32,000 bases of DNA from Candidatus Electrothrix sp. GW3-4 (GCF_037902255.1 NZ_CP147990.1:1980001-2012000), one strand, 5' to 3'; positions 9,183-26,415 are shown, counted from the stretch's first letter. Numbers and translations are program-made. The notes: generated from the sequence alone by a model not told the origin.

Positions 9183-9290
9183 GTAGGTTGGGGTGAGCTT
9201 TGCGAACCCCAACATCAACGGCTGTTCATTATTTTTGTTGGGGTTCGTTTCTCTCTTTTGTTGGGGTTCGTTCCTCTCACCCCAACCTAC
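9183..9290. repeat. REP doublet (REPIN-like), left of RAYT
   Basis: GTAG + hairpin GTTGGGG-N13-CCCCAAC (9183-9213) and the inverted partner GTTGGGG-N13-CCCCAAC + CTAC (9260-9290). An extra half copy begins with gttgggg at 9237-9243. The 15-nt ends gtaggttggggtgag / ctcaccccaacctac are exact reverse complements. Confidence 0.85.
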
Positions 9291-9294
9291 GTAT

Positions 9295-9825
9295 TCATTC
9301 ATATTTATTGGCATTCACCTGAAATATCGGTTCTTCGGACCAATCAGGCGGATATTGACCGTTTTTGACGGCCTGATGAAATGTTGAATACGGCCAATCC
9401 GCAACGCGGGCAACGTGACCGTGTTTGACCTGGTTGTAATGGATGTAGTTCACATGGTTCATGTAATCTTGCTCGTCCCGGATCAGGTGTTCCCAATACC
9501 TCCGTTGCCAGATGCCCCGTTCACCCTTGGCGATTCGGCTTTTGCTCCGTTGTTCATCAGCAGGGATACAGCGTGAAAATCCGGCCTTAATCAGGGACCA
9601 GCGCATGGGATAATTTGCATCGCCCTCCGGCAACGTCCAGATTGCATGGAGATGATCGGGCAGCACCACCATCACATCAATGCAAAAGGGATGTGATGTC
9701 AGCACGTTTTGCACGGCATCCCGTAAATCGTCAATGTGATCAACGAGCAGGGTTTGGCTCCGGTCCGCCAGATTGACCGTGAAGAAATATGTCCCTCCCG
9801 GCACATACACCCGTCGATATTGCAT
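9295..9825 (-). CDS. REP-associated tyrosine transposase (RAYT, IS200/IS605-like Y1 HUH family)
   Basis: 176 aa. Near-colinear with E. coli TnpA-REP/YafM as I recall it: YRRVYVPGGTYFFTVNL, HUH motif VVLPDHLHAIWTLPEGD, IWQRRYWEH, catalytic-Tyr block VNYIHYNQVKHGHV, DWPYSTFH. Confidence 0.92.
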   Translation of the reverse strand: MQYRRVYVPGGTYFFTVNLADRSQTLLVDHIDDLRDAVQNVLTSHPFCIDVMVVLPDHLHAIWTLPEGDANYPMRWSLIKAGFSRCIPADEQRSKSRIAKGERGIWQRRYWEHLIRDEQDYMNHVNYIHYNQVKHGHVARVADWPYSTFHQAVKNGQYPPDWSEEPIFQVNANKYE

Positions 9826-9855
9826 TCAATTATCCATATCCGTCATCCGTGATTC

Positions 9856-10032
9856 GTAGGTTGGGGTGAGCTTTGCGAACCCCAACATCAACGGCGACAA
9901 CATATCACGTCAAAATTCCGACACCGTTAATCGGGAGGACATTTCAACATGTTTGATAAAATACCGGTCGTTATTTTTGTTGAGATTGGTTTCTCTCTTT
10001 TGTTGGGGTTCGTTTCTCTCACTCCAACCTAC
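9856..10032. repeat. REP doublet (REPIN-like), right of RAYT
   Basis: GTAG + GTTGGGG-N13-CCCCAAC (9856-9886), identical to the left copy through ...atcaacgg. Inverted partner GTTGGGG-N13-CTCCAAC + CTAC (10002-10032). Degenerate half copy gttgagattggtttctctc at 9979-9997. The inner spacer is longer than in the left doublet. Confidence 0.85.
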
Positions 10033-10047
10033 GAAGACACAAAAGAA

Positions 10048-10443
10048 TCAGTCCGTAAAATATTTTCGTTCGATATGTATCACCTCTCCATACTTGTCAA
10101 ATACAATCGTCCGAAGCCAATAATTGCGGTCTACTCCCCCACTCGTGTATCTCCATATTTCCTTGGGGACACTACCTGTGTAGTACTCCTTATTTATTGG
10201 TTCCCCAAGAAGGCTAATTACTTGTTTTTGTTTCATACCGAGAGTCAGCGAGCCGAATGCTTTTTCTGAAAATTCGGTTGAGTATCTCGTTGTATCTTCG
10301 TACAGAAATATAGTATGCAATAAAGCGTCCGATAATCCATTATACTTAGTCCCATAGCGCAATATGCTACTTAATAAGACTAAAATAAACATACTGGTAA
10401 GAATAGCAAAACCCGTCAAGATACGGAGTACTGTGAGGTTCAT
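10048..10443 (-). CDS. putative Rhs-toxin immunity protein; N-terminal TM anchor + SmpA/OmlA (BamE)-like segment
   Basis: The ATG at 10441-10443 overlaps the rhs stop TGA (10440-10442) as ATGA. 131 aa: MNLTVLRILTGFAILTSMFILVLLSSIL (one TM helix), then ...LGMKQKQVISLLGEP...WRY...VFDKYGEV, which resembles the BamE-type motif. AT-rich like the toxin tip. Confidence 0.6.
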   Translation of the reverse strand: MNLTVLRILTGFAILTSMFILVLLSSILRYGTKYNGLSDALLHTIFLYEDTTRYSTEFSEKAFGSLTLGMKQKQVISLLGEPINKEYYTGSVPKEIWRYTSGGVDRNYWLRTIVFDKYGEVIHIERKYFTD

Positions 10444-13400
10444 TGTTTGATACACTTGTTACTATCGTACCTATAAACAGGACCTCCAAATTCCACTTCA
10501 GAATCATCAATAAGAGGATGAAATATTCCACCTATTCGAAGAATATCCCCCCAAAGACTATCATAGTCATTTGGTCGTATCCATTCTGGTAGATGAACCC
10601 AAGAGCCAAAAATACCTCTAAGCTTGATTGTTTGGTCGCCATAGTAAACGGCATCAATATCGTTGCTCGCAAATGGCGTATCGGGAAAAAGAGTCCAAGG
10701 TGGAACTTCATACTGAAGCTGACCTGTACCATAAGGATTGTTGCCGCTAACTATTACGCTTTCACTAGTCAGGTTTATAAGGTGTCCCGTATGAAAGAAT
10801 TGTGCAACGGAAGACTCGGCATCAAGTCCAAACGGATCAATCAACCTAATCGGATTACCCTCCACATAGGCAAACAAATTCTTATTCCAAATCGGATCTT
10901 CCCCAAGAAACCGCCGCAGCTCAGGCTGATAATACCTCGCCCGCATATAATACAACCCGTTCCCCTCATACATCACCCCGTACTGCCCCACATAACGGAA
11001 CGGATTAAACGCCTCCTCCTGCACCGCATTCACCGTGCCGTAGGCAGTATAGGCATACTGATGGGTGACATTGCCGACCTCATCGGTCATGGCCACAGTG
11101 CTGCCTCGGAAATCATAATGAAAACTCCGGTAGGCCCCGTTCTTCTCCTGCCCGATCAGGCCGATCCCATACACATAAAAAGTCTTTTCCCCGGCCTGAT
11201 CCTCCCGGACCAGCACCTGACTCAGTGGGGCATTGGGATTGACCACATAGCGGGTTGCGGCCCCGCCCTCTGTCACCGTAATGCGCTGATTCTCCGCATC
11301 ATAGGTATAGACGGTGCTACCGACCTGGCGCAGGCGGTTGCGGGAATCAAAGACAAAGGAGGCAGCCTTTCCGTTCAACGGCCCCTGCACCATATTGCCG
11401 TCCGCATCGTGCGAAACCGTCAGGCCGTTGTAGCTCGCCAGCTGATTGGCCGGGCCATAGGTCATCTTTGCCGGACTGATCGCCACCGGCTCAGGCGCGG
11501 GTGTGGCCTTTTCCTCGACAATATTGCCCACCTTGTCATAGCTGAAGTCATACTGGACAATACGCTCGCCGCCACCCTTGGCATCAATCTGGCGCAGGAG
11601 CTGTCCGGCCTCGTTGTACTCGCGGGTCACCGTGCTGTGGTTGGGTCGGGTGGTCAGGGTCAGCCGCCCTTCCTTGTCATAGGCATAGCTCGTGGTGCGG
11701 TTATTCCAGTCCGTGACGCTGACCAGCCGATCCGCTGCATCGTAGCCGTACTCCACCTGTTTGCCATCCGGGTAGGTCAGGCTGCTCAGATTGCCCACGG
11801 CATCGTATGCGTACTGCATGACATTGCCCCGGCTGTCCGTGTGCTTGATCACCCTGTCCAGGGCATCGTATTCCCGGGAGATGGTGCCGTCCACATCGCT
11901 GACCGTCAGCACATTGGAGTTGGCATCATAGGTATAACTGACTGTGCCGTCCGGGTCGCTCATTGCGGTCATCCGACCCAGGGCATCGTAGGTAAACTGC
12001 CGCTCCTGCCCCCTAGCGTTGGTCAGCTTGGCGAGCAGATCACGGGCAGTATAGCTGTACTTAACGGTGCTGCCTGCGGCTGAGGTCTCGCTGGTCCGGC
12101 GGTTATTGGCATCATAGCTGAAGCTCGTCCGGTTGCCCTTGGGATCAGTGATATCAAGGAGCTGACCCTCTTCATTAAAGGACTGGGCTGCTGTTCCGCC
12201 CAGCGGATCAACGGTTGACGACAGGCGATCAAGGGCATCGTAGTTCATCTGCACCACCCGGCCCAGCGGATCAGTGCTCTGCTTCAGCCGATTCAGCTCG
12301 TCGTATTGCAGGCCGGAGCTGTTGCCCAAGGCATCAATCATCCCGACCGGATTATCCCTGTTATCGTAGCTCAGAGCCTGTACAACCCTGCCGAAGGCAT
12401 CCTGCACAGCAAGCAGATTGCGGGTCTTGTCATAGCTCAGGGTTCGGGTATTGCCCAGGGGATCAGTCAACGCCACCATGCGACCCTTGGCATCATAACT
12501 CAGGGTGCTGCTGTTGCCTTTGGCATCAATAAGCCGGACAAGGCGGCTTTCACCGTCGTACTCGTATACTGTCTCCTGCCCCAGGGCATTGATCGCCCGG
12601 ACCATATTGCCGTTATTGTCGTACTCAAAACGGCTTTCATTCCCCTTGGCATCAACAAGCGAGAGCAGATTGCCCCTGCTGTCAGAGGTCATTTTGACGG
12701 TGTTGCCCAGCGGATCAGTGATGGAGGAGGCCCGGCAGGGGCTGGAAGTACCAGAACAAGGGAGGTCATGGTTGAACGTGGTCGTATTGCCCTCGCTGTC
12801 GAGCACAGCCGTTACACGACCGGCAGCATCATAGCGAATTGCTTCGCTGTTGCCTTCAGGACGAATCACCTTTGTCGGCAGCCCGTCTGTATATTCATAT
12901 TTGACAACCCTGCCCAGAGGCGAAGTCACAACGACCAGCTGGCCTTGCTCGTCATAGCTGAATTGCGCCGCCTTACCTAACGGATCAACAGCCCGGATCA
13001 GCCTGCCCTGATCGTCATACGCAAAGCTGCTGGTTTTCCCCAAGGCATCGGTCAGCCCGGTGAGAGAGTTGTTCGCATCATAGCTCATGGCCGTGACCTT
13101 GCCGTCCGCATCCGTGACCGAGGTCATGTTGCCTTGCTCATCATAGGCAAAGCTGCTGCCGTGCCCGTTTGCATCCACAGCAGAGGTACGGTTGCCCTTG
13201 GCATCATAGCTGTACACGGCACTGGGATTGCCGAGTTCGTCGATCTTTTCCAGCATCCGGTACTGGCCGTCAAAGGTATATTGGCTGACTGCTCCGTTCC
13301 GATCAGTGACTGTGGTGATGATCCGGTCAGGCTGGCTCTCGTCGTAGGTAAGAGTTATCTCGCTGTTGTCCGGCAGGCCGTCATCCTGAGCAATAACCCG

Positions 13401-15320
13401 GCCCTGAGCATCAAAGGTGTTGGCAAAAAGCTGATACCCCTCTGAGCTGGTCCCGGTGAGAATCTGATCCTGATCGTTCCAGGTAAAGCTGATGGTATGC
13501 TCATACGGGTCGGTGATGCTCGTCAGGCGGCGGTCGGTATCATAGCTCAGGCTCACCTGACGGCCTATGGGATCGGTTACGCTTGCCAGCAAGCCCGAAG
13601 CAGTATAGGCATATTCAAGAAAAACCCCGGACACCGGCTCGGTGATCCGTTGCAGCCGCTCAGAGCTGTCATAGCTGAACTGGAGGGCGCGGCTCTGTGC
13701 ATCGCTGAGTTCGACAAGCCGACCGGCAGCATCGAAGAGATAGACAGTCTTATCCTGCCGGGTCAGGGTGTAGCTGTTATCGCTGTTTTTGACCAGCTTA
13801 TCGTAAAGACAGGCTTCGTCCAAAGAGCTGTACACGCCGTTGCCGTCATGATTGAAACGGTTGGTCCTGTTTTCCGCCCACTCCACGTTTACGGCCTCGT
13901 TGTCGGCAGGCTGTATTCTGGCTGCAAAATCGTAATTCAGACTCCATGCCCTGCCAGCTATCCCCTCCTGATCAACAACCAACGAATTATAGGCCAGATT
14001 AAAGGAAATCGGCACAAGCCCCTGAACCGATAACAGACGGTACTCCAAAAACTGGGCACCGGTGGAGATGTCTATAGGATCAGCACAACTTTTCTCACAC
14101 TTGCGACAGTCGCTGCATGACGTGCTGTTGCTCCGGGAATAGGGAGTGCTCCAGTTGGATTCCCTTATTGACACCGAGGCAGAACGACCAGTACGCGGAT
14201 AAACATCACCGAAGACCGTATTGCCCGATCGATCCGAGGTGACGGTGGAAATAGTATCGCTGTCGAACTTATAGTATAATTTTGAACCGCTGATTGTGCC
14301 GCTCCAGCCGTGATCCACGTATTTTTCATAATATCCGTTGGCATCGCTGGTGACAGGGAACTCGCCTGAAAAAGAAACCGTAACCTCTGGAATACGCCGA
14401 CCGTTATACCGCTCGGTATAGCCTGAGATCTTGTGCTTGGATTGTCCGCAAATCAGATCAATACCGGATGTGTCAGCAGTTACATTGGAGACAGAAACAC
14501 AGGAGAAATCGCAGCCGCTCCTAGTCGCGCAGACCTCACCGCTCCAGCCGTTGGGCACGGTTTGGCTGTATTCACCGCCGCTGATGCTCTGCACCGAGGA
14601 AAGGCCGGTAAAAGTGACTGTGGCGTTGAGAATCGCAGTGCCGTCGGATTTTATTGTTCTGCCGGAGAGGGTGTAGCTGTCTGGGTCTGTTGATAAGGTG
14701 GTAGCGGTTTGGCAGGCGGTAAAATCAGAGCTGCCATCGTCATTATTTGCCCTCACCTTGTAGCTGTAGGTAGTCTCCGGGTTTAATCCCTTGACAAGAT
14801 AGGAAGTCTGGGTTGTGTTACCGATGAAACTACCGGCGCAGGTATAGACATCGTAACCCGTGGCATCGCTTACAAAGTTCCAAGAGAGGTCAATACCAGT
14901 GGAACTCTGGGGGGTCGCGGTGAATGAAGATGGTATTCTCGGTAATGTAGTGGACGGCCATGACAGAGTGAAATATACATCTTTACTTTTATAACTGTAA
15001 AGATCACCTACCCATACCTCAACAGCGTATTTATTGCCTTCGTTATACGTCATCGAAATAGTCCAGCTATATGAGCCGTTGTTCGGCGCATTTAATGCAA
15101 TGGGGCCTTGTTGCACACCATTTTTGTATAAATAAATGTTAACTGTGGAGCTTGTACTATCCGTATCCCACTGGATATTACGAGTCTCACCGGTGTACCA
15201 TACATCCCCTGCAACCGGACTGGTGATATTGATATACTCTGCTGCCCAAGTTGCCAGAGGAGTTAAAAAGGTGAGGAGGAAAAGGAAGAGCGGAAGGATG
15301 AATCGGCAAGAAGGTTTCAT
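10440..15320 (-). CDS. Rhs/YD-repeat polymorphic toxin with Sec signal peptide, FN3-containing N-terminal region and unassigned C-terminal toxin tip
   Basis: ORF 10440..15404. The likely start is the ATG at 15318-15320 (aaggaa SD; MKPSCRFILPLFLFLLTFLTPLATWAAEY). FN3-like IDLSWN..ATGYDVY..GLNPETTYSYKVRANN. Dozens of YD repeats (xYxYDxxGRL/N). Rhs core end GLYYMRARYYQPELRRFLGEDP...NPIRLIDPFGL, followed by a 127-aa tip. Confidence 0.92.
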   Translation of the reverse strand: MKPSCRFILPLFLFLLTFLTPLATWAAEYINITSPVAGDVWYTGETRNIQWDTDSTSSTVNIYLYKNGVQQGPIALNAPNNGSYSWTISMTYNEGNKYAVEVWVGDLYSYKSKDVYFTLSWPSTTLPRIPSSFTATPQSSTGIDLSWNFVSDATGYDVYTCAGSFIGNTTQTSYLVKGLNPETTYSYKVRANNDDGSSDFTACQTATTLSTDPDSYTLSGRTIKSDGTAILNATVTFTGLSSVQSISGGEYSQTVPNGWSGEVCATRSGCDFSCVSVSNVTADTSGIDLICGQSKHKISGYTERYNGRRIPEVTVSFSGEFPVTSDANGYYEKYVDHGWSGTISGSKLYYKFDSDTISTVTSDRSGNTVFGDVYPRTGRSASVSIRESNWSTPYSRSNSTSCSDCRKCEKSCADPIDISTGAQFLEYRLLSVQGLVPISFNLAYNSLVVDQEGIAGRAWSLNYDFAARIQPADNEAVNVEWAENRTNRFNHDGNGVYSSLDEACLYDKLVKNSDNSYTLTRQDKTVYLFDAAGRLVELSDAQSRALQFSYDSSERLQRITEPVSGVFLEYAYTASGLLASVTDPIGRQVSLSYDTDRRLTSITDPYEHTISFTWNDQDQILTGTSSEGYQLFANTFDAQGRVIAQDDGLPDNSEITLTYDESQPDRIITTVTDRNGAVSQYTFDGQYRMLEKIDELGNPSAVYSYDAKGNRTSAVDANGHGSSFAYDEQGNMTSVTDADGKVTAMSYDANNSLTGLTDALGKTSSFAYDDQGRLIRAVDPLGKAAQFSYDEQGQLVVVTSPLGRVVKYEYTDGLPTKVIRPEGNSEAIRYDAAGRVTAVLDSEGNTTTFNHDLPCSGTSSPCRASSITDPLGNTVKMTSDSRGNLLSLVDAKGNESRFEYDNNGNMVRAINALGQETVYEYDGESRLVRLIDAKGNSSTLSYDAKGRMVALTDPLGNTRTLSYDKTRNLLAVQDAFGRVVQALSYDNRDNPVGMIDALGNSSGLQYDELNRLKQSTDPLGRVVQMNYDALDRLSSTVDPLGGTAAQSFNEEGQLLDITDPKGNRTSFSYDANNRRTSETSAAGSTVKYSYTARDLLAKLTNARGQERQFTYDALGRMTAMSDPDGTVSYTYDANSNVLTVSDVDGTISREYDALDRVIKHTDSRGNVMQYAYDAVGNLSSLTYPDGKQVEYGYDAADRLVSVTDWNNRTTSYAYDKEGRLTLTTRPNHSTVTREYNEAGQLLRQIDAKGGGERIVQYDFSYDKVGNIVEEKATPAPEPVAISPAKMTYGPANQLASYNGLTVSHDADGNMVQGPLNGKAASFVFDSRNRLRQVGSTVYTYDAENQRITVTEGGAATRYVVNPNAPLSQVLVREDQAGEKTFYVYGIGLIGQEKNGAYRSFHYDFRGSTVAMTDEVGNVTHQYAYTAYGTVNAVQEEAFNPFRYVGQYGVMYEGNGLYYMRARYYQPELRRFLGEDPIWNKNLFAYVEGNPIRLIDPFGLDAESSVAQFFHTGHLINLTSESVIVSGNNPYGTGQLQYEVPPWTLFPDTPFASNDIDAVYYGDQTIKLRGIFGSWVHLPEWIRPNDYDSLWGDILRIGGIFHPLIDDSEVEFGGPVYRYDSNKCIKQ

Positions 15321-15345
15321 GACGGTTCCTTGATCGTTAGAAGCA

Positions 15346-15528
15346 AAAGCAGGCAACCCGGCGGTCTCCTCTCGGAGATCCGTGGCTTTCCGACACCGCC
15401 TCACGACGGCTGTGGCTTTATCAACTTTCCTGTTCCGACCGGAAAGTCAAGGCACCTGCTCAGTGGATAAGCATTGCCATTTGTTATGGTAAACGCAACA
15501 TAGCTTTGTTACTTCGTCTTTGTCAATT
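15346..15528 (-). promoter_or_regulatory. repeat copy 1: sigma70-like promoter + ~170-nt structured leader upstream of rhs
   Basis: Minus strand: TTGACA (15526-15521), N18, TATGTT (15502-15497). Closing helix GCAGGUG/UUGCCUGC spans 15459..15349. Three internal hairpins: 15446-15425; 15410-15395 with a GUGA loop; 15380-15363 with a GAGA loop. Roughly 90% identical by eye to 16935-17120. Confidence 0.5.
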
Positions 15529-15781
15529 GTTTTTTCAGAGGATTGCTTGAAGGGGGCGAAAACGGGAAGCAAAGCCGAAGCAATCAACTTTGATCACGCT
15601 TGATGTTTTAAACATAGCCCCCCCTTTCCGCGCAATATCCCCCCACCGCACAAACTGCCCCCGCAACCCCGGCTCATCTCTGAACGCCCTGAAATAAACA
15701 TACTCAGGAGCCAAATCAGCACCGTTGGGGCGCACTATCATCCTTCAGGTCTGAGCCTGTTTTGATATACAAAGGCATGAT

Positions 15782-16792
15782 TCACTCCAGCGACGCCTCG
15801 ACCTCGGCAAGATCATCCGTAACCTTTATGATGTGTTTAATCATATTCAGACGCTCAATATCCCTGATCCGCCGAATCTCCGGCAGCAGCCGTAGCCCTT
15901 TTGCGCCGAACTTGACCGACAAACCCATCTCAATCGCTTCGAGCGTACCTTCCAGCAGTCCTTCCAACATACCCTGCTGTCGCCCTTCGAGCATACCTTT
16001 CTGGCGTCCTTCCGAAACTCCACGCTTGAACCCGATCCTCTCCACGCTCGTCACATACCGCACCTTTTTTTCCTCCTCATATTCGCCGATCTCCTGCCAG
16101 AACTCTTCTCCCATGTATTCCGGCAGAGCCATCATCCAGTCGATAAAGTGAAAAAGCCGGATCACATCCTCTTTCTTATAATCGTGTTCATACAGCTTTC
16201 TCACCAGATACAGTTTCCATTTTTTCCTTCCGTCGGCATCATGACGTGTTTCCTGTGTTTTCAGATGGGCCGTCACGGCCAGCGCAAAGGGATTGGCGTT
16301 TTCTTCCGTAATATCCCGGCGGTCCGCATAATCAAGAATCTTCACGCTCGGAAAACGGATACCGACCCTGCATCCCCAGAGTTCATAGCCAAAATGGTCG
16401 GGCCGCCAGCCTTTCCGTTCGTCGGCCAATACGGCCAGACTGACCACCGGCCTGCGGAACCGATCAAAAATCCGGTAATTGTACACGAACATGCGCTCCT
16501 CGAAGCTTCTTTCCTCCTGCCCCTGCACTTCCACATGGACCAGCACCTATGCCTCGTCGCCGTTTTTTCGCCACAGCCGGACAAGCTTGTCCGCATACCG
16601 CCTGCCGAGTTCGGCGTCACGGGTTACCTGCTGAAATTCCTTGTCGAGAAAGAGATAGCCCCGTTCCCAGTCTGTTTCTTCGGTGATTTCAGGAAAGAAG
16701 AAGGTGATGAATTCCTGAAAATAACATTCCAGAATCTCCTTCCACGGGCTGTCGAAGTCCTGCCGCTCTGTTGCTCTGGGGCTGTCTGTCAT
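15782..16792 (-). pseudogene. Rpn-family PD-(D/E)XK nuclease / putative transposase with C-terminal DUF4351-like region, interrupted by an in-frame TAG
   Basis: ORFs 16547..16792 and 15782..16546 are contiguous in one frame: ...RLWRKNGDEA-TAG-VLVHVEVQGQEE. N-terminus DSPWKEILECYFQEFITFFFPEI and C-terminus EGRQKGMLEGRQQGMLEGLLEG...FGAKGL...IRRIRDIERL are typical of this family. The stop (16547-16549) separates the Asp-containing strand from the ExQ strand. Confidence 0.75.
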
Positions 16793-16934
16793 TGTTATTT
16801 TGACTGTATGGAATATTTCGGTAAACAGAAGCGATGGCAGGCGGAAATCAACCGGCCTGTACGACGGAAAAGTCTATCCTGAACAGAAATTTTCCGGGTG
16901 GAACTCATAACATACTTGCCGATCTTCAAAGGTT

Positions 16935-17120
16935 AAAGCAGGTAACCCGGCGATCTCTCATTTAGAGACCCGTGGCTTTCCGACACCGCCTCGCGACGGC
17001 TGTGGCTTTATCAACTTTCCTGTTCCGACCGGAAAGTCAAGGCACCTGCTCAGGAGATAAGCATTGCCATTTTGTTATGGTAAAACGCAACATAGCCTTG
17101 TTACTTCGTGCCTGTCGATT
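16935..17120 (-). promoter_or_regulatory. repeat copy 2: same promoter + structured leader element, upstream of the rpn-like gene
   Basis: Minus strand: TCGACA (17118-17113), N18, TATGTT (17094-17089). Structured core at 17049..16938. The GNRA loop is GCGA here. The third hairpin is GGUCUCU-AAAUG-AGAGAUC. Confidence 0.45.
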
Positions 17121-17190
17121 ATTATCCATAAAAAAATATTAACGTAACGAGGAGATGCAGAACGAAAATGCTTGTGGCGCAATAAAAAAA

Positions 17191-18744
17191 CTACCCCTTC
17201 TCCCACTCCACCCGACTGACATTCCGTTCAGCCCTGCTGAACTCAACCCCGATCAACCAGATTTCCTTCCCTTGCCCCTGATATTTCTCCGCATACTTTT
17301 TCTCTTTAATCTGCTCAAGAGCACAGCCGGGTTCGGTCAACTCATTGACCTTGAACTCAAAGATATACACCCGCTCCTCAAAGCAGACCGTCAGGTCAAT
17401 CCTCCCCTGATTGGTCACATCCTCCGGCCGGACATTCAGGCCCAGGGCCGCAAAATAGCAATACACCACCGAGCAATAATACCCCTCATAGCCTGCCAGC
17501 TCATTTTTTCTGTACCAATCATGGGGAATAGAAGCAAAAAAGGCGTGGAAGATATGCTCCAAGGCGGCAAAATTATTGGCCTGCAAGGCCCTGAAAAGAG
17601 CTACCTGATTTCTTTTCAAGGAAGTGAGTTCCTGGCTGTACCAGTGCAGGATGGAACCACTTAGGCTTTTGCGGACTTCATGATTGGGAAAGCCGAGATG
17701 ATAGATATATTCTTCATCAAAAAGCTGTTCTCTGCCGGTGATGGTTAGATAACCGGTCTGAAAAAGGAGCGACTCCGGTGCAATATAATCCACATCAAAA
17801 CTGCTGAGTAACTCCTCGTCCGCAGTCAGATTTTCCAGCTCTGGAATAAACATCTTCTTTTCCATGAGCATACGCACCAAGAAAGACGGGGTACCGGTCT
17901 CGAACCAATAGGGCCTGAATTCCCGGTTGCGAAAATAGAGGAGGATGTCAAAGGGATTATAAACCGAATCACCGAGGAAATTATAGCCGTTGTACCATTT
18001 TTTCACCTGGTCCAGATTAACCCCATCCAGGTAGTCCGCAAAACCTGTCTCCAGTTCTTCCTGGGTGTAGCCGCATATACTGCCGAAACGAGCATCCAGG
18101 GTAATATCTTCAAGATTGTTCAACCCGGAAAACAAAGAAACCTTGGAGAATTTGGATACCCCGGTGAGCAGGACAAAACGGAGGTGTGCTCCCTGGGCCT
18201 TGAGCACGGAATAGATATTTCGCAGGCCTTCCCGCAGTTCAGCCGCCTTAGCTGTATCGGTGATATTGTCGAGGATCGGTTTGTCATATTCATCCACCAG
18301 AACCACAACCTGCTGCCCGCTTTCCCGGTACAGCCTGACAATCATTTCCTCCAGGCAATGATCAGGAGAATCAGAAGCAAGAGACAGGTTATATTCTTCT
18401 GTCTGGAGATGCAGCATCCGCACCACACGTTGGTCCAACCTGCTCCGGCTTTCCATAATACCCTGGGCAAAATCAAGTTTGATGACCGGATATTTGGTCT
18501 TCCAATCCCAGTTATTTTCCAGGTACAGGCCCTGAAATAACGCCTTGTTTCCGGAAAAGGCCTGAGCAAGGGTGTCAACCAGCAGGCTTTTACCGAAACG
18601 ACGGGGCCGGGAAAGGAAATAATAGCGTCCCTGTTCCACCAAGCGGGCAATCAGCGGAGTTTTGTCGACGTAGCAGTAATTATCGGTTCTGATGTCGGCG
18701 AAGGTCTGGATGCCGATAGGAAGTTTTTGAGGATGTTTCTTCAT
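17191..18744 (-). CDS. AAA-ATPase-like (PF09820-type) + PD-(D/E)XK nuclease (PDDEXK_9-type) protein, paralogue A
   Basis: ORF 17191..18759. The ATG at 18742-18744 matches the paralogue's start (MKKHPQKLPIGIQTFADIR). Motifs YVDKTPLIARL, YFLSRPRRFGKSLLVDTL (P-loop), VVLVDEYDKP (Walker B); C-terminal GRIDL...IFEFK (D...ExK). Confidence 0.88.
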   Translation of the reverse strand: MKKHPQKLPIGIQTFADIRTDNYCYVDKTPLIARLVEQGRYYFLSRPRRFGKSLLVDTLAQAFSGNKALFQGLYLENNWDWKTKYPVIKLDFAQGIMESRSRLDQRVVRMLHLQTEEYNLSLASDSPDHCLEEMIVRLYRESGQQVVVLVDEYDKPILDNITDTAKAAELREGLRNIYSVLKAQGAHLRFVLLTGVSKFSKVSLFSGLNNLEDITLDARFGSICGYTQEELETGFADYLDGVNLDQVKKWYNGYNFLGDSVYNPFDILLYFRNREFRPYWFETGTPSFLVRMLMEKKMFIPELENLTADEELLSSFDVDYIAPESLLFQTGYLTITGREQLFDEEYIYHLGFPNHEVRKSLSGSILHWYSQELTSLKRNQVALFRALQANNFAALEHIFHAFFASIPHDWYRKNELAGYEGYYCSVVYCYFAALGLNVRPEDVTNQGRIDLTVCFEERVYIFEFKVNELTEPGCALEQIKEKKYAEKYQGQGKEIWLIGVEFSRAERNVSRVEWEKG

Positions 18745-18897
18745 ATTTTCTTCGCGCAATAGCTCATATCTTGCTTCGGTTGCGTAGTTATGTGGTTACG
18801 TAGATCTTGATTGAGTGCGATGAAATCAGACAAGTGAAACAATATTTGTCCGTTTTTGTTGCACTCAAATGGACCTACCAGATGCCTGTTGTAACGA

Positions 18898-20454
18898 CTA
18901 TCCCTTCTCCCACTCCACCCGACTGACATTTCGTTCAGCCCGGCTGAACTCAACCCCGATTAACCAGATCTCTTTCCCTTGCCCCTGATATTTCTCCGCA
19001 TACTTTTTCTCCTTAATCTGCTCAAGAGCACAACCGGGTTCGGTTAACTCATTGACCTTGAACTCAAAGATATACACCCTCTCCTCAAAGCAGACGGTCA
19101 GGTCAATCCTCCCCAGATTGGTCACATCCTCCGGCCGGACATGCAGACCCAGGGCCGCAAAATAGCAATACACCACCGAGCAATAATACCCCTCATAGCC
19201 TGCCAGCTCATTTTTTCTGTACCAATCATGGGGAATAGAAGCAAAAAAGGCGTGGAAGATATGCTCCAAGGCGGTAAAATTATTGGCCTGCAAGGCCCTG
19301 AAAAGAGCCACCTGATTTCTTTTCAAGGAAGTGAGTTCCTGGCTGTACCAGTGCAGAATGGAACCGCTTAGGCTCTTGCGGACTTCATGATTGGGAAAGC
19401 CGAGATGATAGATATATTCTTCATCAAAAAGCTGTTCTCTGCCGGTGATGGTCAGGTAACCGGTCTGAAAAAGGAGCGACTCCGGTGCAATATAATCCAC
19501 ATCAAAACTACTGAGTAACTCCTCGTCCGCAGTCAGATTTTCCAGCTCTGGAATAAACATCTTTTTGTCCATGAGCATACGCACCAGAAAAGACGGGGTG
19601 CCGGTCTCGAACCAATAGGGCCTGAATTCCCTACTGTCGAAATACAGGAGGATATCAAAGGGATTGTAGACCGAATCGCCGAGAAAATTATAACCGTTAT
19701 ACCATTTCTTTACTTGGTCCAGGTCAACTCCGTCCAGGTAGTCAGCAAAACCGTTCTCCAGTTCTTCCTGGGTGTAGCCGCATACACTGCTGAAACGTGA
19801 ATCCAAGGTAATGTCCCGAAGATTGTTCAGACCGGAAAAGAGAGAAACCTTAGAGAATTTAGACACCCCGGTGAGCAGGACAAAACGGAGGTGCGCTCCC
19901 TGGGCCTTGAGCACGGAATAGACATTTCGCAGGCCCTCCCGGAGTTCAGCAGCCTTGGCAGCATCGGTAATGTTGTCCAGGATGGGTTTGTCGTATTCAT
20001 CCACCAGGACCACGACCTGCTGCCCGCTTTCCCGGTATAGCCGGACAATCATTTCCTCCAGGCAATGATCAGGAGAGTCAGAAGCGAGAGACAGGTTATA
20101 CTCTTCCGCCTGTAGATGCAGCATCCGTACCACACGTTGGTCCAGCCTGCTTCGGCTTTCCAGAATCCCCTGGGCAAAATCAAGCTTGATGACCGGATAT
20201 TTGCTATTCCAGTCCCAGTTGTCCTCCAGGTACAGTCCCTGGAACAAATCTTTGTTCCCGGAAAAGGCCTGAGCAAGGGTATCAACCAACAGGCTTTTGC
20301 CGAAACGACGGGGCCGGGACAGGAAATAAAAGCGCCCCTGTTCTACCAGGCGAGCAATCAACGGAGTTTTATCGACGTAGCAGTAATTATCGGTTCTGAT
20401 ATCGGCAAAGGTCTGGATACCGATGGGAAGTTTTTTTCTGGGGTACTTTTTCAT
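18898..20454 (-). CDS. AAA-ATPase-like + PDDEXK_9 nuclease protein, paralogue B
   Basis: 518 aa with ATG at 20452-20454. Same motifs as paralogue A. By my manual alignment there are about 24 differences over ~518 positions, and only 3 fall in the last ~230 residues. Confidence 0.88.
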   Translation of the reverse strand: MKKYPRKKLPIGIQTFADIRTDNYCYVDKTPLIARLVEQGRFYFLSRPRRFGKSLLVDTLAQAFSGNKDLFQGLYLEDNWDWNSKYPVIKLDFAQGILESRSRLDQRVVRMLHLQAEEYNLSLASDSPDHCLEEMIVRLYRESGQQVVVLVDEYDKPILDNITDAAKAAELREGLRNVYSVLKAQGAHLRFVLLTGVSKFSKVSLFSGLNNLRDITLDSRFSSVCGYTQEELENGFADYLDGVDLDQVKKWYNGYNFLGDSVYNPFDILLYFDSREFRPYWFETGTPSFLVRMLMDKKMFIPELENLTADEELLSSFDVDYIAPESLLFQTGYLTITGREQLFDEEYIYHLGFPNHEVRKSLSGSILHWYSQELTSLKRNQVALFRALQANNFTALEHIFHAFFASIPHDWYRKNELAGYEGYYCSVVYCYFAALGLHVRPEDVTNLGRIDLTVCFEERVYIFEFKVNELTEPGCALEQIKEKKYAEKYQGQGKEIWLIGVEFSRAERNVSRVEWEKG

Positions 20455-23010: not shown

Positions 23011-26000
23011 ATGAAACTCATGCAAAAAATAACACCGCGCACAGCGCTTTTTATCTCGCTCGGTATCCTGCTCTATATTGCTCTTGCAGGTTATCATGCT
23101 CAGAGCAAAAAAGAACATGAAGAGCAGATGGCTCAGGCCCGGCACAATGCTAAAATACCCGGCTTACAAAATCAGGCCATTGAATATAGGCAGGAGCTGA
23201 CCGATGCGCGGCAGGGGGAGAAACTTCTCCGTTCAGAGACAGGCAGAAGAGAGCAAGAGCAAGGCACAATAGCAGAGATTGAACAGAAGGTCTCTGCCCA
23301 GCAAAATGAGAAAAATGAGAACAGTATTTCAGCAGAACAGCTGCACAAGGCTGAGGCCCGCATCAAACAACTCCAGGAACAATTGGCTGCGGCCAATAAA
23401 AAGCTGAGCATTGAGACAGAAAAAGAAAACAGCGCCAGCAGACAACTCCTGAAAAAGCTCAAAGAGCGCGAACAAGAGCTCCAAGGACAGGAAGAACAGC
23501 TTGTTCAAATGGAGGAAGGACGCAGGGCAGACCAGCAAAAAATAGCCCAGCTCGAAAAAATACAGCAGAAGAAGGCTGAGCAGGTCAAGCAAACAGAGCA
23601 GCGGGTTGCTGAGCTGACAGGCCGCCTGGAACAGACCAAGGCCCAGCTGGCTGAGGCCACCACCACACTCTCTGTTGCCAATAATGCGGTGCAGAAGGCC
23701 CAGCTCAAGGCAGAGGCCATGCTCCATTACGGCAAAGAAAAAGATCGGATGCTGGCCCCGTCCGAGCAAAAAGCAGCCACCCTGGAACAGCAACTCGCCG
23801 AGCAACAGGCCCAGGTAGAGCAGCTCACTGCTGAGCTTGAAGCTGTTCGCAACGAGATTATAACTGCAGAGAAAAATAACCAGCAACTGGCAAAGCAGGT
23901 TACCTCCTTAAGTGCAACAGGAACAGCTCAACAGGAAGAGATTGCCACTCTGAAAGAACAGCTGCAACAAGCAGGCCGCGAACAACGGGAAAAGCAGGCT
24001 ACCTATAATAGCCAAGAAGCAGCATTAACAGATGCCCAGGCGCAGCTGGAAAAACTGTCTGAGGAAAAAGAACGCCTGACCGCACAAGTTGATGAACTCA
24101 CCGCAGTCATTGAGGCGAACAAGGCCCTTAAGCAGACCGAGCTTGAAAAGGTAAAACTGGGGCTCCATAATAATATTGCCCAGCTCACTGCCCAACTTGC
24201 AGAAAAAGAAAACGAGCTGAAGCAACAGAAAGCACTGCTTGCCGAAGCTGCCGCCCATATCACTGCCCTTCAGGATGCGGAAAAAAGGTCCCAGCTCAAA
24301 ATTGAGGCCCTCCTGAAGTACGGCAAGGAAAAAGAACGCCTGCTGGCCCCCTCCCAGGAGCAGATTACTGTTCTGCAAAAACAGCTTGCGAAAAAAGAGC
24401 AAGAGCTTGCAACCGCCCAGAAGGAGCTGGAAGAACGTGCTACGTATGGAAAAGAGCTGGTGAATCAGGTTGCCAGCCTGACAGAATCCGCCGTTGTTCG
24501 CAATAAGCAAGCAGAGACACTGGCTCAGGAACTTACTGAGGCAAAGGCCACCATCGACAAACTGACTGGCGAGCTTACTCAAACCAAGGCCAGCCTGGAG
24601 ACAGCAAAAACAAACCTGGCAGCTGCCCAGGAAGAGGAGCAGGCCCTGCAACAGGGTCTGGCTGGCAAAGATGAAGAGTTGATCGTCATCAGGGCTGAGG
24701 TCGAACGACTCACTGCAGAGCTTGCCCAGCAAAAGACCACCAATGATGAACTGGCACAAGAGCAGGAGAGGATAGCAGCTGAACTTGAAACAGCAAAGGC
24801 CAAAGAGACCGAGCTCAGTCAGCAATTGGAGACAAAGGCAGAGGAGCTGGCCGCTGCGACAACAGCTACTGACGAGGCAAAGGCCGCTGTTGCTACTGCC
24901 CAGGAAAAGGCCACGACCCTGGAAGTACAGCTTGCTGAAAAGGAAACAGCCCAAGCTGCTGCTGAGAAAAAGGCTGCTGCCCTGGAAGCACAGGTGGCAG
25001 ACCTCCTTCCTTTACAGGAACAGCTGCAGGCTGCGCAAGAGCAGGTTGCAACCCTGGAGGCTGCATATGCAAATACCCAAGGCCTGCAGAGCCAATTAAC
25101 AGCCAGCCAGGAAGAAATAACTACCCTGAAAAATCAACTTGCCGACCTGCCCACCACAGTTGAGGAATTTAACGCCATTCAGGAAAATATTGCCAACCTG
25201 GAGGCCCAGACGCAAACCCAGGCCGAACAGCTGGCAGCTGAGCAGGAACAGGCTGCGGCCTTAAAGGCGCAGGTTGCAGAACTTCAGCAGGCAGCAGCAG
25301 AGATGACTGCGACCCAGAAGCAGATTGCTGATCTGGAGAAGCAATTGGCTGAGGCAGACGCTCAGGCTGAGCAGCTGAGCACGGAGCAGAAAAAGACTGC
25401 TGCCCTGGAAGCCAAGCTCTCTGAGCTTCAGGCGATTGAGCAACAATCGGACGCTACAGAGAAAAAAATGGCCAGCTTAACAGAAGAGCTGGACAAGACC
25501 AAGGCCAAGCTCGCAGAGCTCAGTGCTGCTGGCGAAGATAAAGAAAAACTGGCAAGCGAGCTTGCTGATACCCAGAAAAAACTTGCTGAATTAACAGCAG
25601 CCCAGCAAAATGTTGGTGATAAGACCTCTGCGCTTGAAGAAAAGCTCACGTCGCTGAAGACGAGCCTGGAAGAAAAAGAACAGGCCTTGACCGCCCAGAA
25701 GAAGGCTCTGACCCAGGCCAAGGCAACCTTGGAGGAGCAAACAGCCGCCATTGCTCAAGCAGAAAAGAGCAAGAAAAATGCAGAGCAGTTGACGACAGAG
25801 CTGGCGAGCTCAAAAGAAGAACTCGCTGCCTTGCAGGCGCAGGTCAAAGAACTGAAAGAGGAAATTGCTCGCCTAAAGGAGCAGTTGAGCCAACAGGGCG
25901 CACAGCAGGCTGTGCAACAGACTGTAGCTGCTCAAGTCCCTGCCGAACAAGAAGCACCGGCAGAGGCCACTGCTGCCGCTGATACTGAACAGAAGCAGGT

Positions 26001-26415
26001 TGCCCCTGTTCAGCAGGAGACCCTGGAAACAGCAAACCTGGACCAGGACAATGATGGCACGGTTGATGCCACTATTATTCTTTCTGGCGTCAATTTCAAG
26101 GTGGGCACAGCGAGCCTGACTGACCAGGCAGCAGCCAGCCTGTTGACCACTGCCAAGCTCCTGCAAGAGCATGCCCCTGATCAACATTTTGAAGTAGCGG
26201 GCTATACCGACAGCATGGGGAGCCCGAAAAGAAATCAGCAGATATCCGAGCAACGGGCTGAGGCTGTGCGCAATTTTCTCATTGAACAGGGCATAACAGC
26301 AGATCTCCTGGTCAGCAAGGGCTATGGCCAGGACAATCCTATTGCTGATAATAATACCCCGGAGGGACGGGCCATGAACCGGCGAGTGGAGCTGCATCAG
26401 GTAACAGCAGAATAA
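23011..26415 (+). CDS. membrane-anchored giant coiled-coil protein with TSP3-like DxDxDG motif and C-terminal OmpA-like peptidoglycan-binding domain
   Basis: N-terminal TM helix ALFISLGILLYIALAGY. About 900 aa of A/E/Q/K/L-rich heptad-like sequence. LDQDNDGTVDA motif. OmpA-C block VNFKVGTASL...FEVAGYTDSMGSPKRNQQISEQRAEAVRNFL...GYGQDNPIADNNTPEGRAMNRRVEL. Confidence 0.88.
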   Translation: MKLMQKITPRTALFISLGILLYIALAGYHAQSKKEHEEQMAQARHNAKIPGLQNQAIEYRQELTDARQGEKLLRSETGRREQEQGTIAEIEQKVSAQQNEKNENSISAEQLHKAEARIKQLQEQLAAANKKLSIETEKENSASRQLLKKLKEREQELQGQEEQLVQMEEGRRADQQKIAQLEKIQQKKAEQVKQTEQRVAELTGRLEQTKAQLAEATTTLSVANNAVQKAQLKAEAMLHYGKEKDRMLAPSEQKAATLEQQLAEQQAQVEQLTAELEAVRNEIITAEKNNQQLAKQVTSLSATGTAQQEEIATLKEQLQQAGREQREKQATYNSQEAALTDAQAQLEKLSEEKERLTAQVDELTAVIEANKALKQTELEKVKLGLHNNIAQLTAQLAEKENELKQQKALLAEAAAHITALQDAEKRSQLKIEALLKYGKEKERLLAPSQEQITVLQKQLAKKEQELATAQKELEERATYGKELVNQVASLTESAVVRNKQAETLAQELTEAKATIDKLTGELTQTKASLETAKTNLAAAQEEEQALQQGLAGKDEELIVIRAEVERLTAELAQQKTTNDELAQEQERIAAELETAKAKETELSQQLETKAEELAAATTATDEAKAAVATAQEKATTLEVQLAEKETAQAAAEKKAAALEAQVADLLPLQEQLQAAQEQVATLEAAYANTQGLQSQLTASQEEITTLKNQLADLPTTVEEFNAIQENIANLEAQTQTQAEQLAAEQEQAAALKAQVAELQQAAAEMTATQKQIADLEKQLAEADAQAEQLSTEQKKTAALEAKLSELQAIEQQSDATEKKMASLTEELDKTKAKLAELSAAGEDKEKLASELADTQKKLAELTAAQQNVGDKTSALEEKLTSLKTSLEEKEQALTAQKKALTQAKATLEEQTAAIAQAEKSKKNAEQLTTELASSKEELAALQAQVKELKEEIARLKEQLSQQGAQQAVQQTVAAQVPAEQEAPAEATAAADTEQKQVAPVQQETLETANLDQDNDGTVDATIILSGVNFKVGTASLTDQAAASLLTTAKLLQEHAPDQHFEVAGYTDSMGSPKRNQQISEQRAEAVRNFLIEQGITADLLVSKGYGQDNPIADNNTPEGRAMNRRVELHQVTAE

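Follow-up and report, generated by a model that had tools for sequence, protein, structure and literature searches.

A duplicated leader in Candidatus Electrothrix sp. GW3-4 carries two c-di-GMP-I riboswitch aptamers with a predicted translational switch upstream of the aptamer

A 32,000-nucleotide (nt) stretch of the cable bacterium Candidatus Electrothrix sp. GW3-4 (GCF_037902255.1 NZ_CP147990.1:1980001-2012000; the window) contains a leader that occurs twice on the minus strand, at ~15345-15531 and ~16935-17123. What kind of RNA does this leader specify, and how does it act on the gene behind it? A sequence-only reading had drawn a closing helix around three hairpins, had found no match to a known riboswitch or to a tRNA, and had proposed a novel cis-regulatory RNA or a small RNA carried by a mobile cassette, together with a six-codon upstream open reading frame (uORF). 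We find that both copies hold an aptamer of the c-di-GMP-I (GEMM-I) family. The overall explanation, a GEMM-I riboswitch that senses cyclic diguanylate (c-di-GMP) and works as a translational OFF switch, is in our judgement probable, as one compromise figure across its steps.

The whole window was scanned with the Rfam covariance models at gathering threshold. The sole hits are two matches to RF01051 (c-di-GMP-I), both on the minus strand (E ~3-5e-8 in the whole-window search). With 53.9 and 54.7 bits they lie well above the gathering score of 35, so that the claim of an RNA unmatched to any known riboswitch does not hold, and both alignments span the full model (1-87). The other half of that claim was right: ARAGORN finds no tRNA in the window. 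The helices that had been drawn are present in the sequence, namely the closing helix GCAGGUG (15459-15453) with UUGCCUGC (15356-15349) and the three hairpins CUUUCC-N10-GGAAAG (15446-15425), GCCGUC-GUGA-GGCGGU (15410-15395) and AUCUCC-GAGA-GGAGAC (15379-15364). According to the RF01051 alignments, the second hairpin is P2 with its GNRA loop and the third is P3; the first hairpin and the closing helix lie outside the match because P1 is not modelled in RF01051.

The differences described for the second copy (17049-16938) are found as well. The P2 tetraloop changes from GUGA to GCGA, UUGCCUGC becomes UUACCUGC (G to A in the 3' arm of the closing helix), and in the third hairpin the innermost pair goes from C-G to U-A, an A.C mismatch becomes G.U and the loop changes. 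The view of a structured cis-regulatory RNA in a 5' leader, with copy differences that preserve the structure, is thereby borne out. Across the homologous leaders described below, the P2 tetraloop, which in c-di-GMP-I aptamers docks on P3, is GUGA in 46, GCGA in 28 and AUGA in one, and all genome-derived complete homologues (19/19) match the same Rfam clan. The minimum free energy (MFE) of the unconstrained 186-nt leader is not exceptional against shuffled sequences in either copy (z = -0.96 for copy 1, -1.79 for copy 2). We have next to no doubt that both elements are GEMM-I riboswitch aptamers. The aptamer is canonical, with P2 and its GNRA loop, P3, and G20, A47 and C92 at the ligand contacts; the element is an added example of a known riboswitch family and not a new kind of RNA.

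Homologous leaders were gathered in two samples. A 23-nt word over the 3' arm of the first hairpin, J1/2 and the start of P2 was searched in the genome collection and gave 20 loci, and an 18-nt anchor within the aptamer gave 84 metagenome loci, ~70 of them in the same leader family. Pooling results in 75 distinct family leaders, of which 72 to 75 enter each test depending on sequence completeness. In both samples the anchor predetermines part of the alignment, namely the P1 5' strand in the first and A47 in the second. All 20 genome loci come from cable bacteria or close relatives, with up to four copies per genome: Ca. Electrothrix marina, laxa, aarhusensis, gigas and YB6, Ca. Electronema aureum and halotolerans, and a Desulfobulbaceae metagenome-assembled genome. 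The nearest named relative of the locus is Desulfobulbaceae bacterium S24.Bin023 (locus L005), with 86-92% nucleotide identity over the leader and the neighbouring fragment. Judged by these sequences, the sample shows predicted c-di-GMP riboswitches to be numerous in cable bacteria (Ca. Electrothrix, Ca. Electronema). In the literature that we searched, no paper ties riboswitches to cable bacteria, and cable bacteria and c-di-GMP are co-mentioned only in passing.

This wider alignment also bears on the proposed fold, for which covariation had been suggested as a check. Among 74 leaders, P2 is paired in 99.8% of cells with two columns changed on both sides, and P3 in 93.8% with three such columns, so both helices do show two-sided changes; shifting the P2 or P3 partners lowers pairing to 37-54%. 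No family leader lacks the first hairpin, located 5' of the aptamer and hereafter called the 5' hairpin; 93.7% of its cells are paired, its loops vary, and several lineages have an extra stem-loop inserted.

Model alignments place the equivalents of G20, A47 and C92, of which we take A47 to be a ligand-contact position, at 15416, 15389 and 15353 in copy 1 and at 17006, 16979 and 16942 in copy 2. Throughout the family a G is found at position 20 in 71/75 leaders and a C at position 92 in 72/75. In the numbering of Vc2, the Vibrio cholerae tfoY leader, each guanine of c-di-GMP has its own pairing partner, G20 for one and C92 for the other (G-beta), and the GEMM-Ib sensors of cyclic GMP-AMP (cGAMP) in Geobacter carry an A at position 20 (PMC6140456). 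The variant families c-di-GMP-I-GGC (RF03167) and c-di-GMP-I-UAU (RF03168) belong to the same clan (CL00126) and give similar scores, yet the window copies read G/A/C at the three positions and not G/G/C or U/A/U. Weinberg et al. in 2017 reportedly chose the names GGC and UAU to denote the three contact positions. Membership of RF03167 was rejected: the copies score 53.2 and 56.4 bits against a gathering score of 59, their junction reads GG-AA-AGCC where the RF03167 consensus has GC-GA-AGCC, and an A, not a G, stands at position 47. Four relatives (L006, L007, L013, L019) barely pass the variant-model thresholds, yet they read G/A/C by sequence. Because G20, A47 and C92 are present and the GGC variant model stays below threshold, the predicted ligand is very probably c-di-GMP rather than cGAMP.

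How could such an aptamer act on the gene behind it? Within the family the gap between aptamer and start codon is 24-43 nt (28 nt for copy 1) and holds a strong Shine-Dalgarno (SD) sequence, and the terminator scan found no terminator-like site between aptamer and start codon. Complementarity to the SD region is found in the 5' hairpin, whose 5' arm (CUUUCYGG with its flanks) makes a 9-12 bp duplex with that region in 19/21 leaders; the mean is -11.5 kcal/mol, against -5.0 for shuffled SD segments. Pairing with the leader's own SD is better than with the SDs of other leaders (-12.9 vs -11.1 kcal/mol, z = -6.9, 0/2000 permutations as good); two control segment pairs display no cognate advantage. 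The core of this anti-SD:SD duplex is paired in 64-70 of 73 leaders. At arm position 5 the base (C or U) follows the SD context (CGG or AGG), and the sole combination that does not pair is the rarest one (2/55; Fisher p = 1.3e-5).

The 3' arm of the same hairpin, CGGAAAG, is an SD mimic and also the 5' strand of P1; therefore the 5' hairpin and P1 are mutually exclusive. In c-di-GMP-I aptamers P1 closes the three-way junction beside the ligand pocket. A local P1 is possible at the canonical register in all leaders, where GAAAGUUG (ending 6 nt before G20) pairs with CUGCUUUY after C92; 83.6% of its cells are paired, or ~95% when a conserved U.U column is left out. The closing helix of the sequence-only reading pairs positions 91 and 92 and is for this reason incompatible with the ligand pocket. 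Since C92 must pair with the ligand, this helix is better read as a ligand-free alternative than as the sensing fold; it is part of the MFE structure whenever the 5' hairpin is held.

Predicted folds show how the two states may differ. With P1 forced, the arm pairs 7.4 of 10 SD nucleotides on average, compared with 0.3 when the hairpin is formed. If P2 and P3 are held in both states, SD and start codon are unpaired with a probability of 0.28 when P1 is forced and of 0.46 when the hairpin is forced; under this constraint accessibility is lower with P1 in 65/73 leaders and in none is the effect reversed by more than 0.2. In the same setting accessibility falls from 0.67 in the hairpin state to 0.38 in the P1 state for copy 1, and from 0.59 to 0.41 for copy 2. 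On average the ensemble without ligand is the more stable one by 3.1 kcal/mol, a difference for which binding of the ligand could plausibly compensate.

The mechanism that we propose would run as follows. In the ligand-free state two elements would form together, the 5' hairpin (CUUUCCGG and an SD-like partner that ends in GGAAAG) and the closing helix (GCAGGUG with UUGCCUGC); the latter would occupy C92 and the P1 3' strand, while the SD would stay free. On binding of c-di-GMP, P1 (GAAAGUUG with CUGCUUUU) would form and pull the GGAAAG strand from the 5' hairpin, and the freed CUUUCCGG arm with its flank would pair with the SD and start region, lowering translation. We hold with fair confidence that the expression platform is translational and located mostly upstream of the aptamer, acting through the 5' anti-SD. 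That the switch turns translation OFF is the direction towards which we lean in these models.

Several observations weigh against this mechanism. Relatedness among the leaders is ignored by the permutation and Fisher tests (z = -6.9; p = 1.3e-5), which overstates their p-values. The anti-SD case is weakest for copy 1: past the aptamer its sequence departs from the family consensus, and the arm-SD duplex that it forms in the family register amounts to -4.1 kcal/mol, not better than for shuffled sequences. When copy 1 is folded at full length without constraints, SD accessibility is nearly the same in both states (0.41 vs 0.39), the MFE structure misfolds the aptamer, and the accessibility effect is seen only with the aptamer helices held in both states. 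The local P1 shows one-sided changes only (U.G 44, U-A 17 and C-G 5 in one of its columns, no two-sided change), contains the conserved U.U mismatch and has no significant cognate advantage (z = -1.0); its strands are nearly invariant, and the 5' strand was fixed by the search pattern of the first sample. Finally, every structural state considered here is a thermodynamic prediction.

The same aptamer could in principle work as an ON switch. The fold of the sequence-only reading would then be the ligand-bound one, with the closing helix, or just the four outermost pairs of it (GCAG with CUGC), as P1 and the 5' hairpin as an insertion in J1/2, and c-di-GMP would keep the anti-SD locked in the hairpin and leave the SD free. 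This fold is the predicted MFE structure for most leaders. Two features that the local P1 lacks are seen in its closing helix, which pairs in 82.0% of cells in 74 leaders: two-sided changes in two columns and an advantage of cognate pairing (z = -5.1). Nevertheless, the full closing helix pairs the equivalents of C92 and position 91, whereas C92 must pair with G-beta of the ligand; some leaders (L012, L015 and L016 among them) are unable to form it, and the two G-C pairs at its centre are open in 17/73 and 24/72 leaders. The P1 register of the Rfam alignment is, moreover, the local one. As this alternative provides no ligand-dependent opening of the 5' hairpin, it leaves the anti-SD:SD covariation, the strongest signal in the data, without explanation, and we regard it as unlikely. 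Transcriptional control, in which the aptamer-closing helix and the UUUU at 15348-15345 serve as an intrinsic terminator, seems highly improbable. Most leaders do have a U run after the 3' strand (CUGCUUUU), but this run is only 3-5 nt long, reads UUCC or UUUA in some homologues and is itself within P1; what precedes it is no compact hairpin but a helix with more than 90 nt inside, and the terminator scan is blank there.

A different ligand also has to be weighed, for instance 3',3'-cGAMP as in Geobacter GEMM-Ib. Cable bacteria are electrogenic, GEMM-I relatives with A20 in Geobacter sense cGAMP (PMC6140456), and a minority of the family has an A at position 20 (4/75) or a U at position 92 (3/75). 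Both window copies, in contrast, have the c-di-GMP configuration of G20 and C92 and score below threshold with the variant models, so another cyclic dinucleotide is improbable here. Least credible of all, and in our opinion hardly tenable, is the original proposal of a novel cis-regulatory RNA or a cassette-borne small RNA with a functional uORF. In its favour, the leader is multi-copy (two in the window, several per cable-bacterial genome), and an interrupted ORF of no known family and other repeat-associated genes lie nearby. Against the proposal speak the match to a curated riboswitch family, far above threshold, and an SD and gene start 24-43 nt after every copy. Nor does the element look like a mobile cassette or the terminus of an insertion sequence: no terminal inverted repeats occur at either copy, and the leaders head many unrelated genes, always with SD and start codon. 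The uORF itself fared unevenly. The frame AUGGCAAUGCUUAUCCACUGA (15480-15460 in copy 1) is indeed present in both copies, but it is not conserved in homologues: in the homologous block the start triplet is AUG in 11 leaders and something else in another 11 (ACG in 3, UUG in 3, and AUU, AUA, GAG or AAG in the rest), and 53 leaders lack the block. Roughly half of the homologous blocks have thus lost the start codon; the encoded peptides vary (MAMLIH, MAMLIS, MAILS), and the ORF has no SD before it. A uORF attenuator, for which start codon, frame and peptide should be conserved, was rejected on these grounds.

Each copy of the duplicated block has the same order of parts (Table 1), and the copies diverge downstream of the aptamer. 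A promoter-like TTGACA/TCGACA-18-TATGTT is carried by each, and TTGACA is similarly placed in many homologous leaders. The aptamer lies ~70 nt downstream of the putative promoter and 28-29 nt upstream of an ATG on the same strand, and the homologues are all alike in this respect. Between promoter and 5' hairpin a further hairpin, P0, is predicted. Its stem shows compensatory changes, read off the homologue sequences; it includes the 5' arm of the closing helix, and the uORF falls within it. The H-to-S difference between the uORFs of the window copies maps to the P0 loop. From these sequences, the uORF is apparently a by-product of a conserved hairpin. At the other end of the leader, the start-codon context GUAUGUUAUG is common to many leaders (L002-L020, and 16906-16915 in the window) despite unrelated downstream genes; therefore the conserved module reaches through the SD to the start codon.

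Table 1. Features of the two leader copies and the sequences they precede (window coordinates)
Feature	Position	Strand	Remarks
Copy 1 promoter-like site	15497..15526	-	TTGACA, 18 nt, TATGTT; 10/12 matches; predicted
Copy 1 upstream hairpin P0	15451..15479	-	GGCA-UGCUUA-loop-UGAGCA-GG-UGCC; seen in predicted folds
Copy 1 closing-helix 5' arm	15453..15459	-	GCAGGUG; partner 15356-15349, taking in C92 and the P1 3' strand
Copy 1 5' hairpin	15425..15446	-	CUUUCC-N10-GGAAAG; hairpin 1 of the sequence-only reading
Copy 1 5' hairpin, 5' arm	15446-15439	-	CUUUCCGG; proposed anti-SD; complementary to SD region
Copy 1 5' hairpin, 3' arm	15432-15425	-	ends GGAAAG; SD mimic; common to P1
Copy 1 P1 5' strand	15422..15429	-	GAAAGUUG; canonical position, 6 nt before G20; overlaps 3' arm of 5' hairpin
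Copy 1 c-di-GMP-I (GEMM-I) aptamer	15349..15426	-	RF01051, 53.9 bits vs 35
Copy 1 P2	15415-15390	-	GUGA tetraloop at 15404-15401; model alignment
Copy 1 P3	15387-15355	-	GAGA loop at 15373-15370; model alignment
Copy 1 P1 3' strand	15345..15352	-	CUGCUUUU; directly after C92; can pair with 15422-15429
Copy 1 Shine-Dalgarno and start codon	15318..15331	-	AAGGAA 15331-15326, RHS gene ATG 15320-15318; 28 nt past aptamer
RHS gene under copy 1	10440..15320	-	1626 aa, secreted; Pfam and NCBIfam hits
Copy 2 promoter-like site	17089..17118	-	TCGACA, 18 nt, TATGTT; 9/12 matches; predicted
Copy 2 closing-helix 5' arm and 5' hairpin	17015..17049	-	17049-17043 and 17036-17015; identical to copy 1 here
Copy 2 c-di-GMP-I aptamer	16938..17016	-	GCGA tetraloop; RF01051, 54.7 bits vs 35
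Copy 2 degenerate Shine-Dalgarno and 37-codon ORF	16795..16921	-	CGGCAAG 16921-16915; MSSTRK... 16908-16795

The gene after copy 1 encodes an RHS protein with a signal peptide, a Kre9_KNH immunoglobulin-like domain, fn3, DUF6531, RHS/YD repeats, an Rhs-associated core and a variable C-terminus. Its sole exact match is a 5.5-kb metagenome contig that includes 83 nt of upstream sequence. At locus L079 the same leader heads an RHS protein with 88% identity to it over residues 215-1498; exactly after the core the two diverge, as in polymorphic toxins. Neither the C-terminal ~127 residues of the window protein nor the following 135-aa ORF (10455-10051) matches a Pfam or NCBIfam family. Because the homologue diverges exactly at the end of the core, the sequence suggests a polymorphic toxin domain with its cognate immunity gene at 10051-10820, and we infer that copy 1 controls a secreted RHS-repeat protein of toxin type. 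Other family leaders head lipoproteins and small secreted proteins, and the small proteins match no Pfam or NCBIfam family.

Copy 2 precedes only a 37-codon ORF, and its leader and this ORF share 86% nucleotide identity with L005. N-termini of the types MNSTKK, MRSAKK and MSSTRK begin longer riboswitch-led proteins in L079, L098 and L065; a tblastn search found no remnant of the L079 RHS N-terminus in the window. Between the copies, after the 37-codon ORF, lies a 336-codon ORF (15782-16792, minus strand) that is interrupted by an in-frame TAG at 16549-16547 and matches no Pfam or NCBIfam family; L005 has the same arrangement, with a fragment that is 91.5% identical. On this sequence comparison, copy 2 is best read as an intact leader before the truncated remnant of a degraded paralogous gene. 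Paired leaders are also seen elsewhere: two metagenome contigs (L086, 1044-2159; L091, 311-1377) each have two family leaders 1.05-1.1 kb apart with an own ORF after each, resembling the 1.59-kb spacing of the copies in the window. At L021 (4372-4694, Ca. Electronema halotolerans) only the 5' half of the leader remains (promoter region, 5' hairpin and P2), followed by unrelated sequence, ~350 nt downstream of a tRNA gene.

Among known systems, Vc2 (RF01051) appears to be the closest functional analogue. The two share the aptamer family, the three-helix junction, a GNRA loop on P2 and the G20/A47/C92 contacts. Vc2 is reported to be a translational OFF switch in which P1 forms in a ligand-dependent way and, as a consequence, a ribosome-binding site that is remote from the aptamer becomes masked (PMC11705072), a mechanism also attributed to Inuzuka 2018 as cited there. 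Differences exist in the predicted platform: in the window leaders a dedicated 5' hairpin upstream of the aptamer supplies the proposed anti-SD from one arm and the P1 5' strand from the other, and an extra long-range helix would be able to sequester C92. The P2 loop is GYGA in the cable-bacterial family and GAAA in Vc2, the host is a cable bacterium, and the genes that would be controlled encode RHS proteins and further secreted proteins. The same aptamer class occurs in Bc1 of the Bacillus cereus group, which is transcriptional; GEMM-I switches of this kind have rho-independent terminators in a long downstream platform (PMC11218506), whereas copy 1 has only 28 nt between aptamer and start codon and no terminator was found in it.

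The GEMM-Ib riboswitches of Geobacter (e.g. Gs1761) have the GEMM-I fold in common with the window leaders, and they likewise occur in many copies in an electrogenic deltaproteobacterial lineage, upstream of genes for extracellular or surface proteins. They differ in having an A at the G20 position, where both window copies and 71/75 family members have a G. Membership of GEMM-Ib was rejected for the window copies, as this A is absent from both and found in 4/75 relatives only. The relatives in question are L037, L053, L073 and L084; a U at the C92 position occurs in L046, L098 and L099. By sequence, family members with A20 or U92 might have an altered cyclic-dinucleotide specificity.

Some further features of the window were noted. 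At 9183-10033 an exact 40-nt direct repeat (9183-9222, 9856-9895) and a 66-nt repeat (9226-9291, 9968-10033, 91% identical) flank an ORF on the minus strand (9295-9825) with a weak match to an IS200-like Y1 transposase (E = 0.001), an arrangement that looks like a REP/RAYT-type element. The region 17191-20454 holds tandem paralogues on the minus strand (17191-18759 and 18898-20454), each with AAA-ATPase_like and PDDEXK_9 domains and 95% identical over their 3' 300 nt. A 1134-aa ORF on the plus strand (23011-26415) has an unusually high AT skew (0.39-0.42) and a six-copy family of 40-nt repeats, which suggests that it encodes a repetitive, possibly coiled-coil, protein.

Summarizing, a default Rfam search suffices to detect this seemingly unmatched RNA. 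Its three-part platform (anti-SD, SD mimic that doubles as P1 strand, and SD) would offer a testable case of a switching helix 5' of the aptamer. Tentatively, and with some doubt, we propose that cable bacteria have one module in a lineage-specific expanded set, made up of promoter, P0, 5' anti-SD hairpin, aptamer and SD, in which the P1 5' strand would be the SD mimic and a C92-pairing helix would stabilise the ligand-free state, and that through this module c-di-GMP would govern a regulon made up of RHS toxins together with secreted or surface proteins that are uncharacterised. Riboswitches ahead of RHS polymorphic-toxin genes and of secreted families without Pfam annotation may give a handle on a second-messenger regulon in genetically intractable cable bacteria. 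If the regulon reading is true, c-di-GMP would control secreted proteins in a multicellular, electrically conductive filament.

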